A stretch of DNA of 64,000 bases from Planctomycetota bacterium. GTDB taxonomy: Bacteria; Planctomycetota; Phycisphaerae; Phycisphaerales; UBA1924. The DNA lies in NCBI GenBank assembly GCA_038521625.1, contig JBCBKP010000001.1, positions 75,247-139,246 on the forward strand, given 5' to 3'. Made by a program: the position numbers and the translations under genes. Position 1 is the stretch's first letter. Every line of letters starts with the position of its first letter. Positions 2,028-38,599 of the stretch are shown one piece after another. The notes under the pieces were generated by a model that made no database searches, was not told where the DNA came from, and saw only the letters and a list, made by a program, of their open reading frames with translations.

Positions 2028-3836
2028 CTAGTCCGAGGGACATCCCGCGAAGAAGAGTTCCAGGTATTCCGCGACGTCCAGCTGGCTCACGACCTCGAAC
2101 GGCTCGGCCAGACGCGCGGCCCGCGGGTCGTCCGCGAAGAACCGCGCCACGAACTCCGCGACGTCGAGCTGGCTGAGCACGCCGAACGGGAAGACCAGGT
2201 CCGCCGGGCTGCACTCCGGCTCGATCTGCGCAACGACGAGGGAGCTGGTGTTCGCGTCCTCGAGGAGCGCGAACGAGACCTCGCCGTTGTTGTTGAAGGT
2301 CGTCAGCTCGCGTGTCGCGGAGAAGTCGGTCGCGAGGAACGCGATCTGCGCGACGTCGCGCAGGTCGGCTGTCCCCGGCCGCGGGTCGAGATCGACCGGC
2401 GTGCCGATGACCGCGATCGGCTTGATCGTGCCGTCGGCGGTCGCGGCGAACAGCCCGCCGCTGCTGAGAACCGGCGCGCCCCGGTCGGCGAACGACGCGG
2501 TGAAGACGACCTGGTTCTTGTCGTTGATCTTTGGTGCGCTGATGATGAAGAGAGTCAAGCCGGGCGAGCCGGGCACGGGGTCGCCGGTCTTGGCGAGCAG
2601 CTCGGGCTCTCCGTCCGGCCGCATGCGCCAGACGCCCGTGCCGAAGACGTCGCTCGGTCTCGATCTCGCCTCGAACGACCCGGTGAACGCGAGGTTGCCG
2701 CTCGTCGAGAGCGCCGGGGCGCCGATGGATTGCCAGACGATCGGCTCGCCCTGGAGGATGCCGATGCCCGGGACGTCGCCCTGGTTGCCGGTGACGAAGC
2801 CGACCTCGGGGAGGTTCGGGAACTCCGGTGCGCTCGCGACGAAGATGGCGTCGTCGCTTCGGAACGCGGCGATGCCGTTGTCGGCGAGCCGGATGTTGCC
2901 CGGGCGGTCGTGCCGAAGGGGGGGTATGAACGTGGGGCCGGGCGCGAGCTCGCCGTCGAGCGCGAGCAGCGTGCCCGTGAACTCGAACGCCGGCAGCGAG
3001 GCCACGGTCTCGCCGCGATCCGGCCCGCCGAACCCGGCGCTCGACCTTCCATTGACCAGCAGATTCCCGCCGGCGTCGATCTCGACGCTGTCGGTCTCGC
3101 TGAGGCGGAGGTCCTCGCCTTCGAAGTCGATCTCGAAGAACGGGCCCGACCGCAGCGACAGCCCGGTGCCGATCGTGCCCGTGAAGAACCCGCCCTGCCC
3201 CGAGCCCGGGCCCGTCTGAAGATCACCGGCCACGACGACGCGCCCGCCCGGGCCGAGCGCGAGGTCGTCGAAGTCGACGATGTTCTCCGTGCCCGGCGGT
3301 CCGGCCGGGTTGCCGTCCTGGATGACGAACGGATGCACACGCTCGGACGCGGGCGCCAGAAAGACGGCGCGGTCGTTGTCCGGTCCGACAAGAGCGGTGA
3401 CGCCGAGCGAGCCGTCCAGAGTCGCGAACGGCGCGGCGAGACGGTTGATCGTCACGGTCGGCAGCGCCGGGTGCGCCTGGCCCGCGGCGAGCTGCAGGCG
3501 TCTGGTGCCGTCCGGATCGGCCGTCCAGACCGAGAGGATGGTCCCCTGGAAACTCGGCTGGGTGATCGTCGCGAAGGTGACGCGCCCGTCGTCGTCGATG
3601 ACGTGCAGCGAGAGCTGGCCAGCGAACGGGAACGTGTCGCTCGCCGGGTCGAAGCCCGGCACGCCCGCCGGCACCGCGTCGGTCGACCGCACGACCTCGC
3701 GGTACAGGGCCTGGGCGTCGGCGAGCGCGGCCGCCGCGTGCGCGAGGCCACAGCCCGCCAGAACGATCAGCGGCTTCGGACTTATCACGGCGATTCCCCT
3801 CTTGCTCTCCGGTGCGGACCGAAGATAGCGGATCAC
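2028..3836 (-). CDS. secreted/lipoprotein-like ~600-aa repeat protein with C-terminal GC-type dockerin-like domain (paralog B)
   Basis: GTG start at 3836. The N-terminus ...KPLIVLAGCGL contains a lipobox-like LAGC. The C-terminus CSPADLVFPFGVLSQLDVAEFVARFFADDPRAARLAEPFEVVSQLDVAEYLELFFAGCPSD is the same paired-repeat domain as the neighbouring genes. Confidence 0.7.
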   Translation of the reverse strand: MIRYLRSAPESKRGIAVISPKPLIVLAGCGLAHAAAALADAQALYREVVRSTDAVPAGVPGFDPASDTFPFAGQLSLHVIDDDGRVTFATITQPSFQGTILSVWTADPDGTRRLQLAAGQAHPALPTVTINRLAAPFATLDGSLGVTALVGPDNDRAVFLAPASERVHPFVIQDGNPAGPPGTENIVDFDDLALGPGGRVVVAGDLQTGPGSGQGGFFTGTIGTGLSLRSGPFFEIDFEGEDLRLSETDSVEIDAGGNLLVNGRSSAGFGGPDRGETVASLPAFEFTGTLLALDGELAPGPTFIPPLRHDRPGNIRLADNGIAAFRSDDAIFVASAPEFPNLPEVGFVTGNQGDVPGIGILQGEPIVWQSIGAPALSTSGNLAFTGSFEARSRPSDVFGTGVWRMRPDGEPELLAKTGDPVPGSPGLTLFIISAPKINDKNQVVFTASFADRGAPVLSSGGLFAATADGTIKPIAVIGTPVDLDPRPGTADLRDVAQIAFLATDFSATRELTTFNNNGEVSFALLEDANTSSLVVAQIEPECSPADLVFPFGVLSQLDVAEFVARFFADDPRAARLAEPFEVVSQLDVAEYLELFFAGCPSD

Positions 3837-32822: not shown

Positions 32823-33298
32823 GCGAGAGCTCGCGCCATCCGCAAGACCTGGCGCCGGGCGAGTGGCACCGCGTCCGGCGCTCTTGGCGAGACGCGCCGC
32901 ACCACATGCGGATGGTGGACATCTCCTTGGCGTTCTCCTGCGTCGCGTTAACGATCGTGATCGCGATTGATGGTGCGAGCTGGTGGTCGCTCGGTGTCCT
33001 GGTATCTGTCGCGAGCGCTCTCACGGCGACTTCGTACACGCCCGAGTTCCTGCACGACTGCTACGCCAATTCACGCGCGATCCGATACAGCGACATCCGG
33101 GGCGAGGTCGTCTTCCGAAAGGGCGACTCGGTCGTGGAAGCGAGCCCGCCGCCGGATCGGATTCGTCCGTGCGGGGTCCGGCTCCGCCGAATCGACGGTC
33201 GGAAGAGGTCTCTCTTGGTCTATCGGTCGGGGTACGCGTCGCTCCGTGCGCTCGGCTGGCTCGGCCCGGAGCCGTCTACCGTTCGGCGTGACGCCTGA
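32819..33298 (+). CDS. hypothetical membrane protein, possibly translationally coupled to the SPFH gene
   Basis: The GTG start overlaps the SPFH TGA as GTGA. There is one TM segment (MVDISLAFSCVALTIVIAIDGASWWSLGVLVSVASAL). GC3 is moderately high. Weak call. Confidence 0.35.
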   Translation: MSESSRHPQDLAPGEWHRVRRSWRDAPHHMRMVDISLAFSCVALTIVIAIDGASWWSLGVLVSVASALTATSYTPEFLHDCYANSRAIRYSDIRGEVVFRKGDSVVEASPPPDRIRPCGVRLRRIDGRKRSLLVYRSGYASLRALGWLGPEPSTVRRDA

Positions 33299-34442: not shown

Positions 34443-34502
34443 CCGACCTCTCGAGTACAATCCCAGTCGGGGCATTCGGCCTGGTCAGGCGGGAGGATCC
34501 GA

Positions 34503-35042
34503 GTGAATCAATCGATCCAGCGTGAGGCCTTGAGGACGCCGAGCATCGGCGGGGTGTTCGAGATAGGGGCCGAGGGAGCGCGGCAGGCGGACGACAAGGC
34601 CCGCCGTCCAGATTCGCAGCTGGCGCTCAGGACGAAGGACGCTCGAATCAAGGACACGGACATCGAAGATGAATCGTCTTGGTTCCGGAACTTCGCGACG
34701 TTCAAGATCGTAAGTGCTTCAGCTCGCGAGTTGCTGGCGTACGAGAGCTCGGGCAATCTGCCCTCGGCCCCGGGGACGGTGAACGACACCTGTCTCGGTA
34801 TCCATTCCGAGGGCTGGCTCAGCGACCGGCTGCAGAAGCTGCGTCGCATGCACGGCGAGCTTGTCGTGAGCGAGATGTTCTCGGAACGCAAGCCGTGCGC
34901 AGAATGCATTCAGCTTTTGAAGTTCCAGCCGGCGTGCCGGGGTGTCTTCGTTGCATTCGCGGTGAGTCACGCCGGAAACGCGTCTGGTCGCAAGAACGCC
35001 GGGGAGATGGCGGCTCGGCTTCGTCGGGCGTACGGGCTCTAG
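34503..35042 (+). CDS. deaminase-fold protein (CDA superfamily HxE...PCxxC signature), orphan, lower GC
   Basis: GTG at 34503 is preceded by GGGAGGATCCGA. The product has TCLGIHSEGWLSDRLQKL, then 27 aa, then KPCAECIQLL, then GVFVAF. That is the spacing and secondary-structure order of TadA/cytidine-deaminase zinc sites. About 60% GC against ~70% in the flanks. Confidence 0.55.
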   Translation: MNQSIQREALRTPSIGGVFEIGAEGARQADDKARRPDSQLALRTKDARIKDTDIEDESSWFRNFATFKIVSASARELLAYESSGNLPSAPGTVNDTCLGIHSEGWLSDRLQKLRRMHGELVVSEMFSERKPCAECIQLLKFQPACRGVFVAFAVSHAGNASGRKNAGEMAARLRRAYGL

Positions 35043-36548: not shown

Positions 36549-36902
36549 CTAATAGATCAGTATCTGATCGCCGACGCAGATGTGGAAGCTCTCCGGCACC
36601 CCGCCTCTGCAGATCAGCATCCGAGGACCATCGTCGAAGCAGATCTCTAGCCCGTTGTCGTCGACGAAACGAGCTGAGGCGACTTGCTGGTACACCCGTT
36701 GCCGCAGCCCGAGCGGTTCGTCCATCGCACCCCACGCCGGGGCGTTTCCGATCGTCACCGTGCAGTGGGGTTGAAGATCGATCTGCGCCCGATCACCGAA
36801 GTAGAGCGTGATCATGGACGGGTGCACGTGGTAGCTCATGAGCTGGGTCGAGACGAGCACGGCACCGACGTCGAATCCGCTGTCGCCGTACTGGTAGCGC
36901 AT
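36549..36902 (-). CDS. hypothetical protein (117 aa)
   Basis: Clean ORF with high GC3. Product: MRYQYGDSGFDVGAVLVSTQLMSYHVHPSMITLYFGDRAQIDLQPHCTVTIGNAPAWGAMDEPLGLRQRVYQQVASARFVDDNGLEICFDDGPRMLICRGGVPESFHICVGDQILIY. No family recognised. Confidence 0.5.
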   Translation of the reverse strand: MRYQYGDSGFDVGAVLVSTQLMSYHVHPSMITLYFGDRAQIDLQPHCTVTIGNAPAWGAMDEPLGLRQRVYQQVASARFVDDNGLEICFDDGPRMLICRGGVPESFHICVGDQILIY

Positions 36903-38374: not shown

Positions 38375-38599
38375 CGGGCTCTCCTTCGGGCGCGGCTCCG
38401 GCCGAGATGGGGATCGCGGCCTCCGCAGGCATCATTCGCAGCCCGATCGACCCACCTCAAGCGCCGGCGACCAACTCTCGGCCCGCCCGGCTTCAGGCTG
38501 CACCGGGGCGGGCGATCCGGACGATGCATACCACTGCCGGGCGGCCGTCGCGGCCGTTCGACTGTCAAGCGGCCTCGCGGCCAGCGGGAGGGCCCGGAG

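Follow-up and report, generated by a model that had tools for sequence, protein, structure and literature searches.

How a cell lives with an unguarded enzyme that probably deaminates a polynucleotide, and what purpose such an enzyme serves, is the question raised by a gene at positions 34503-35042 of a 64,000-nt stretch of planctomycete DNA (contig JBCBKP010000001.1 of assembly GCA_038521625.1, positions 75,247 to 139,246 of the forward strand; hereafter the window, meaning the whole of this stretch). The gene encodes a protein of 179 amino acids (aa) that stands in the database as 'hypothetical protein AAFR38_00465 [Planctomycetota bacterium]', and our analysis assigns it with high confidence, in both fold and family, to the zinc deaminases of the XOO_2897 clade, of which it is a complete member. 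Besides, we consider it probable that the protein is a bare toxin module, that is, a conflict-type effector of toxin ancestry that was recently inserted into this genome and is not a housekeeping enzyme. The toxin ancestry of the deaminase module is clear, and an effector or toxin role for the present protein is a more tentative proposal.

The sole Pfam match of the protein was to XOO_2897-deam (PF14440; 19.1 bits, E = 1.4e-3, residues 95-141), and neither PADLOC nor NCBIfam, including its TadA and Cdd models, returned a match for the open reading frame (ORF). A sequence search of the PDB gave only a spurious low-complexity match to EtpA. The first-pass annotation of this DNA, which was made from the sequence alone, had called the ORF an orphan, and a word-indexed search of 5.8 billion proteins indeed recovered only the protein itself (and only five proteins when the family profile was used), without any relative above ~33% identity; however, distant homologs do exist, as revealed by an exhaustive phmmer search and by scans of genomes and metagenomes. 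The phmmer search of 1.84 billion cluster representatives found seven homologs with 29-38% identity (E from 1e-17 to 2e-4), among which residues H101, S102, E103, S127, E128, R129, P131, C132, and C135 of the planctomycete protein are invariant. Six of these seven homologs pass the gathering score of PF14440 (27.7-49.3 bits) and the seventh reaches 26.8 bits. Moreover, a profile of the window clade aligned by hhalign with the C-terminal domains of RHS toxins with a probability of 99.1% (E = 6.6e-19, 104 columns), and these RHS/PT-HINT toxin domains themselves score 38.6-50.9 bits on PF14440, which bears out the suspected kinship with the deaminase domains of nucleic acid-targeting toxins. Among 107 wider relatives gathered by the pattern SERIPC, the HxE motif, which was not part of the search pattern, occurs in 101, replaced by DxE in five and RxE in one, so that the Glu is found in all 107. 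The replacements are DSE for HSE in five metagenomic relatives (L054-L056, L058, and L059) and RSE in L070, while the spacing of the cysteines across the subgroup is PCx2C (14), PCx3C (90), or PCx6C (3).

The family itself is therefore not new, contrary to what had been proposed: it is the clade described as XOO_2897-like by Iyer, Zhang, Rogozin & Aravind (2011; PMC3239186), who listed for it a Glu located between strand 3 and helix 3, a truncated fold that ends with helix 4 and lacks strand 5, and kinship to AID/APOBEC, all of which are found here, and who already noted versions without immunity genes. The clade belongs to the helix-4 division of deaminases, the branch that also holds AID/APOBEC. 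Pfam has included it since it was classified in 2011, and most of the stand-alone homologs carry a PF14440 tag in the databases. What our analysis adds is modest, namely a very divergent member from the Planctomycetota that current annotation has missed and the observation that bare modules without partners dominate the subgroup among free-living bacteria of soil and sea. The label 'hypothetical protein' can now be replaced by XOO_2897-like deaminase domain protein.

The catalytic residues stand in the motifs H101-S-E103 and P131-C132-A-E-C135. The HxE...PCxxC signature had been recognised earlier, although the 27-residue spacing assigned to it is the gap between E103 and P131, and H101 lies 30 positions from P131. 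An AlphaFold2 model built from an alignment of seven sequences (mean pLDDT 78.5, pTM 0.79) places both motifs at helix N-termini, and assignment of secondary structure by DSSP gave helix 3-9, strands 17-22 and 25-28, helices 38-51 and 57-61, strands 64-71 and 77-84, helix 102-117 (with HSE at its start), strand 120-129, helix 133-141 (with PCxxC at its start), strand 149-154, and helix 166-176, followed by the chain end. This corresponds to the topology a1-b1-b2-a2(HSE)-b3-a3(PCxxC)-b4-a4-end, which is the deaminase core without strand 5, preceded by a short helix and a hairpin. The helix-strand-helix-strand order expected from the sequence was thus reproduced, whereas the ~100 N-terminal residues, earlier described as unlike TadA or Cdd, are no foreign region, since helix 1, strand 1, and strand 2 of the canonical fold are made by residues 38-84, and only residues 1-28 or so are extra. 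Foldseek searches of the PDB with this model recovered the deaminase fold: the top matches were all APOBEC3G, APOBEC3B, and AID (probability ~1, E = 2e-3, TM 0.35-0.41), DddB (BaDTF3) appeared lower in the list, and only structures with a deaminase fold were matched. Along the gene, the elements of the protein are distributed as follows:

34503-34586, plus strand: residues 1-28, an N-terminal helix and beta-hairpin before the canonical core, shared with the fused toxin relatives (AlphaFold2 DSSP; the alignment to the C-terminal module of P0008, a fused relative, starts here, and P13 is invariant).
34614-34754, plus strand: residues 38-84, helix 1, strand 1, and strand 2 of the core, with invariant N63 and A65 (alignment and AlphaFold2).
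34758-34802, plus strand: residues 86-100, a variable loop of low confidence (pLDDT < 50) from strand 2 to the catalytic helix, differing in length among homologs.
34803-34811, plus strand: H101-S102-E103, the zinc-ligand His and catalytic Glu at the start of helix 2, invariant in eight of eight sequences.
34881-34907, plus strand: S127-E-R-K-P131-C132-A-E-C135, the SER motif with the Glu between strand 3 and helix 3 and the two zinc-ligand Cys (S127, E128, R129, P131, C132, and C135 invariant; clade signature in Table 1 of Iyer 2011).
34947-35030, plus strand: residues 149-176, strand 4, a loop, and the terminal helix 4 (AlphaFold2 DSSP, strand 149-154 and helix 166-176).

Just past strand 2 of the core stand the invariant residues N85 and P87, and the loop that follows is a putative substrate-contact loop; an insert in the loop between strand 2 and the catalytic helix has been described in a subset of the XOO_2897 clade (Iyer 2011; PMC3239186). 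By alignment and not by coordinates, F152 at the end of strand 4 falls in or beside a column that holds F or Y in the homologs (VFF, VFY, WYYYY). The protein stops three residues past helix 4 at the conserved Y177-G-L179, and its homologs all end in the same YGL.

The ORF is a real gene, as evidenced by its codon-position GC content, its Shine-Dalgarno (SD) site, and its full-length match to homologs. The order GC3 > GC1 > GC2 (GC content at the third, first, and second codon positions) supports coding in this frame, and the protein is identical across three independent assemblies. The hexamer GGGAGG, which had been pointed out upstream of the ORF, is under-represented in the window, with 27 occurrences against 66 ± 8 expected, and is also found directly upstream of other genes (e.g., at 38586-38591, before the murA-like ORF region); because it is both rare and so placed, we take it as a genuine SD-like site. 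The gene and its borders read as follows:

34491-34496, plus strand: the SD-like site GGGAGG, 6 nt before the GTG, read off the sequence.
34503-35042, plus strand: the coding sequence, 540 nt with a GTG start (ORF listing and raw sequence), of the 179-aa stand-alone XOO_2897-like zinc deaminase of the helix-4 division (ORF, codon-position GC, homologs, PF14440 in the homologs, model, and fold search).
35039-35042, no strand assigned: CTAG, the overlapping stop codons of the deaminase gene (plus strand) and of the convergent SRPBCC gene (minus strand) (ORF listing and sequence).

The position and composition of the gene suggest how it came to be there. It lies, as first described, between rlmN (TIGR00048, E = 1e-68), which ends 60 bp upstream on the same strand, and a convergent SRPBCC/Polyketide_cyc gene, and its GC content is low as had been noticed: 62.8% against a window mean of 70.3% (7.6 points lower), with a GC3 of 0.778 that is the lowest of the 40 ORFs called in the window and compares with 0.91-0.98 in the neighbours. 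The RlmN of the window shares 67-72% identity with that of Phycisphaerae-type metagenome-assembled genomes. One of these relatives (GCA_038746265.1; L048) shows the order asnS, Band_7, rlmN, a slot, SRPBCC, two further slots, a 478-aa protein, and murA, with an SRPBCC protein 62% identical to that of the window and a 478-aa protein 71% identical to a 476-aa ORF of the window. Its slot after rlmN is occupied by an unrelated secreted protein of 336 aa and holds no deaminase, and in two further relatives rlmN is followed by priA or by a hydrolase-like gene, also without a deaminase. The deaminase gene is therefore a lineage-specific insertion in a variable slot, which together with the GC deficit indicates a fairly recent acquisition. 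A repeat search found neither direct nor inverted repeats flanking the gene, and thus no mobile-element scar is suggested.

Other genes of this region also vary between lineages. The 336-aa protein in the slot of L048 (7228-8238, plus strand) has a signal peptide and a C-terminal Asp-rich repeat of dockerin/EF-hand-like type (DIDRDGDVDSDD...DFNDDGAIDVFD), with no Pfam match on record. In the window, a 117-aa ORF (orf117; 36549-36902, minus strand) has a GC content of 61% and a GC3 of 0.80, low like those of the deaminase gene, from which it is 1.5 kb distant; its only Pfam match is weak (DUF6188, E = 0.11), the 120-aa gene in the corresponding slot of L048 is not homologous (E = 0.28), and it represents a second small gene of foreign composition that is specific to this lineage. 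The same 5-kb stretch holds a third lineage-specific insertion, an ORF of 130 aa between Band_7 and rlmN (32906-33298, plus strand; GC around it 0.65-0.67), whose N-terminal part is hydrophobic and which matches no Pfam family; in L046 and L048 the 98-280 bp that separate Band_7 from rlmN contain no called gene. Elsewhere in the window, two adjacent ORFs of ~600 aa (146-1912 and 2028-3836, both minus strand) are paralogs with 34% identity, both matching DUF7453 (best E = 1e-29).

The relatives of the protein occur in two kinds of architecture. Fused forms combine the deaminase domain with delivery regions: P0008 (635 aa) and L016 (624 aa) consist of eCIS_core (formerly DUF4157; eCIS, extracellular contractile injection system) plus XOO_2897, L042 (2171 aa) and L037 (at least 2754 aa) of RHS plus PT-HINT plus XOO_2897, and L045 (980 aa) carries the XOO_2897 domain at its extreme C-terminus. 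These are the classical layouts of polymorphic toxins and eCIS effectors, and the fused relatives nearest to the planctomycete protein (P0008, L016, L128, and L051-53) have the eCIS-core architecture. Nevertheless, the stand-alone form (156-190 aa) is the commonest architecture of the subgroup, mostly in Acidobacteriota. A scan of 185,579 species genomes, performed with an alignment from which the window protein was left out, found matches to the pattern in only ~30 of them, so the family is sporadic; 27 of 34 loci were stand-alone ORFs of ~157-190 aa, mostly from Acidobacteriota and one from Planctomycetota. Similarly, ~56 of 70 complete ORFs in the metagenome scan were shorter than 260 aa, and seven had 557-1176 aa with the domain at the C-terminus, whereas the scan of viral contigs found no relatives. 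The closest homologs of the planctomycete protein (P0002-P0004) stand alone, and other stand-alone homologs (P0005-P0007) are as distant from it as the nearest eCIS-type fused forms, with ~30-33% identity in both cases.

The bulk of the stand-alone forms makes up an Acidobacteriota clade (Terriglobales and Bryobacterales) of XOO_2897-like deaminases with 157-176 aa, comprising the genome loci L013-L041 and most of the metagenome loci L060-L129, with the consensus MPKxPSSxP..CDxRLP...NVTAWLY...GxHSE...VLQIFSERIPCxxMCxP...PGVPWYYYYD...YGL.

No partner gene accompanies the deaminase gene in the window. The Pfam matches of 36 window proteins all fall in housekeeping or uncharacterised families (e.g., asnS, Band_7, rlmN, murA-like, leuS, ATP synthase gamma, AddAB-like helicase-nuclease, ABC transporters, and peptidases), RHS, PAAR, PT-HINT, and eCIS core are absent from these proteins and from the deaminase protein, and no eCIS_core sequence occurs in the window. 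The earlier remark that no cognate immunity gene lies downstream was confirmed, as none (SUKH4, Imm3/4/5) is found beside the gene or among the scanned window proteins; the downstream neighbour is the convergent SRPBCC gene, and because the stop codons of the two genes overlap in CTAG there is no space for a co-transcribed gene. No homolog of the ORFs that follow the fused toxins occurs in the window, and Rfam at permissive settings gave no match between 32.5 and 37.5 kb, hence no known RNA antitoxin. A sigma-70-like promoter or a terminator was not found at the gene. Two candidates for an immunity protein were rejected: the SRPBCC gene has a host-like GC3 (0.91), an ortholog in the deaminase-less relative, and no counterpart at other deaminase loci, and orf117 is separated from the deaminase gene by two genes and has no homolog at any other deaminase locus.

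The same picture is obtained at the loci of the relatives. The contexts of the seven close homologs share no neighbour, an all-versus-all BLAST of ORFs within 3 kb on either side of 40 loci detected only local synteny among near-identical genomes, and homologs of rlmN, SRPBCC, DM13, and orf117 are absent from the other deaminase loci. Matches to eCIS_core by tblastn all lay at loci with a long fused form, either inside the fused protein or in an adjacent gene; they were obtained for seven of the eight fused forms that are of neither RHS nor L045 type, with none detected in L058, and a separate DUF4157 gene was not found beside any stand-alone homolog. By crude longest-ORF calls, the next downstream gene is convergent at 21 of 28 stand-alone loci, often at less than 60 bp, and therefore the lack of a co-transcribed downstream gene is a family trait. 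The spacing to the convergent gene is -4 bp in the window, -3 in L040, 6 in L027, 7 in L005 and L036, and 9 in L017, an arrangement that may be due to antisense control or to insertion where convergent genes end. Two individual contexts may be mentioned. P0005 (167 aa, stand-alone; contig Logan SRR26421370, 2.5 kb, and L006) lies directly downstream of a PAAR_motif gene (97 aa) and a Tae4 gene (185 aa) and is the only stand-alone member seen adjoining secretion-system genes, and in L004 (8677-15632) a convergent block comes after P0003, made up of a UvrD-like helicase, an unknown protein of 262 aa, REase-ARP, and an N6_N4 methyltransferase of 999 aa, a neighbourhood that resembles a defence island. 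Overall, in soil and marine Acidobacteriota and Planctomycetota the members of this subgroup as a rule consist of the deaminase domain alone, with no delivery region, no immunity gene, and no conserved neighbour.

A mechanism can be proposed from the family and the model. H101, C132, and C135 would hold a zinc ion that activates water, E103 would shuttle a proton, and the clade-specific E128 together with the variable loop 86-100 may line the substrate pocket. The predicted reaction is a zinc-dependent hydrolytic deamination of cytosine to uracil within a polynucleotide, single-stranded DNA (ssDNA) being the best guess. Cytosine in a polynucleotide is the substrate that we slightly favour, because the clade sits with AID/APOBEC and because XOO_2897-clade members showed cytidine deamination of ssDNA as Cas9 fusions (bioRxiv 10.1101/2023.05.21.541555). 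As to its role, the gene would be a module of a family that is otherwise fused to RHS/PT-HINT or eCIS-core (DUF4157) delivery regions, inserted fairly recently into the variable slot between rlmN and SRPBCC of a Phycisphaerae-like planctomycete, with no immunity gene or delivery apparatus nearby. Tolerance by the host could then be due, for example, to low or conditional expression, to export of the protein as a separate cargo, or to the absence of its target from the producer.

Several observations weigh against a toxin module with this activity. The 19.1 bits of the protein lie below the PF14440 gathering score of 27 bits, the putative substrate loop is unmodelled in a structure that was predicted from only seven aligned sequences, and the presumed substrate is transferred from other clade members that were assayed only as base-editor fusions. 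The protein is a single domain with neither signal peptide nor trafficking domain, and no type VI secretion system (T6SS), eCIS, phage, transposase, SUKH, or Imm family was found in the 36 window proteins. In addition, the stand-alone relatives occur in unrelated housekeeping contexts, and a Pfam census of 101 neighbours, taking the first two ORFs to either side of the deaminase gene at 28 stand-alone loci, yielded 101 families, none of them in more than three loci. At most stand-alone loci, including those of the Acidobacteriota clade, gene GC tracks host GC, and the Acidobacteriota stand-alone clade retains ~62% mean identity between Bryobacterales and Terriglobales. Such conservation points to long residence under purifying selection, which is unusual for fast-evolving polymorphic toxins, and this clade looks more like a long-resident enzyme than like a fast-evolving toxin. 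These features, i.e., the prevalence of stand-alone forms, the host-like GC elsewhere, the conservation in Acidobacteriota, and the lack of delivery or immunity genes, keep domesticated and defence roles alive.

The alternative that survives best, albeit an unlikely one, is a domesticated cellular enzyme: the stand-alone forms would act in the producer on a substrate whose deamination is not lethal (a specific RNA, a modified base, a free nucleoside or nucleotide, or a nucleoside antibiotic, as in the case of blasticidin-S deaminase), with no need for immunity or export. The dominance of stand-alone forms in both scans, the lack of any conserved partner, and the composition and conservation of the Acidobacteriota genes all agree with such an enzyme. 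However, the gene of the window is lineage-specific and compositionally foreign, the family is sporadic, and the clade falls in the helix-4/APOBEC branch, for which polynucleotides are the predicted substrate and which has tested members active on them, and not in the branch of cytidine deaminase and blasticidin-S deaminase. Furthermore, the nearest fused relatives are bona fide toxins that are no more distant from the protein than its farther stand-alone homologs. A related and somewhat less probable possibility is that the planctomycete protein and the ~160-aa Acidobacteriota clade are intracellular APOBEC-like enzymes of free-living bacteria and not exported toxins, which would restrict phage or plasmid DNA by hypermutation or would edit or mutate the nucleic acids of their own cell in a programmed way. 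If so, they may be tolerated without a protein inhibitor through control of substrate or expression.

Less probable again is a dedicated anti-phage role, in which an APOBEC-like deaminase of restriction or abortive infection would stay silent or inactive until infection and then mutate phage or host nucleic acid. A single accessory gene of foreign composition without an immunity partner would suit this role, as would the UvrD-helicase, REase-ARP, and N6_N4 methyltransferase genes beside P0003 and the antiviral APOBEC3 enzymes among the structural neighbours. On the other hand, PADLOC models did not match, defence families are not enriched near the 28 stand-alone homologs, a single-domain protein of 179 aa has no sensor or regulatory domain, no relatives were found on viral contigs, and we found no published precedent for the XOO_2897 clade. 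It is more improbable still that the gene is a stranded, inert cassette, left over from a polymorphic-toxin or eCIS locus and by now neither expressed nor used. Polymorphic toxin loci do contain stand-alone cassettes without trafficking modules (PMC3239186), and neither an apparatus nor a full-length toxin gene occurs in the 64-kb window, where promoter and terminator searches at the gene were also negative. Nonetheless, the frame is intact and full-length and has lost none of the catalytic residues, an SD site stands at a suitable distance before the gene's own start codon, the protein is the same in all three assemblies, and such cassettes normally adjoin a complete toxin gene and immunity genes, which is not the case here. 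Finally, a housekeeping enzyme of TadA or Cdd type tied to rlmN in an RNA modification operon, a form of the novel housekeeping editing enzyme once considered for this ORF, can essentially be excluded, since the 60-bp distance to rlmN on the same strand and an HxE-to-PCxxC spacing close to that of TadA are outweighed by the lack of any TadA or Cdd match in NCBIfam, by the absence of rlmN from every other family locus, by the closest available relatives, which carry the 67-72% identical RlmN and have no deaminase gene in this slot, and by a model that shows neither strand 5 nor the tRNA-binding helix with which TadA ends.

A bare toxin module of the XOO_2897 clade therefore remains the reading that we prefer, and it can be placed among known systems accordingly. 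With typical XOO_2897 members the planctomycete protein shares the HxE...PCx(2-6)C zinc site, the Glu of the SER-PC motif (E128), and the end after helix 4 without strand 5. It differs from them by its strong divergence, with a score of only 19 bits, and by standing free with 179 aa and without RHS, PAAR, eCIS-core, or signal region, and, unlike the toxins of the clade, it has no toxin neighbourhood and no SUKH4 or Imm gene. Its host is a free-living planctomycete, from a phylum that was not listed for the clade in 2011. Regarding the eCIS effectors, DUF4157 has been described as a marker of eCIS toxins and PF14440 as enriched in eCIS operons, many of the eCIS-associated DUF4157 toxins lack immunity genes, and the DUF4157-deaminase toxin EAT11, whose deaminase is not confirmed as PF14440, kills Escherichia coli and yeast (Geller et al., 2021; PMC8213781). 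The same architecture is found in the nearest fused relatives, whereas here neither the protein nor any window gene contains DUF4157.

The T6SS toxins DddA, SsdA, and DddB (SCP1.201-like and BaDTF families) are further removed: their place is in the C-terminal-hairpin division, they carry fused delivery regions, and they are paired with immunity proteins of their own (DddI and others). TadA, which is both universal and essential, possesses five strands and a C-terminal RNA-binding helix, and is caught by NCBIfam models, and none of this is true of the planctomycete deaminase. The closest structural likeness is to AID/APOBEC, which gave the best Foldseek matches, belong to the same helix-4 division, and carry out the reaction predicted here (C to U in ssDNA or RNA), although identity is only 12-18% at a TM of ~0.4 and the planctomycete protein has neither strand 5 nor the extra C-terminal helices. 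This deaminase is bacterial and half the size of APOBEC3G, and, if active, it would be among the smallest self-contained deaminases of the APOBEC branch (179 aa and no partner protein), a size class that is sought for base editors.

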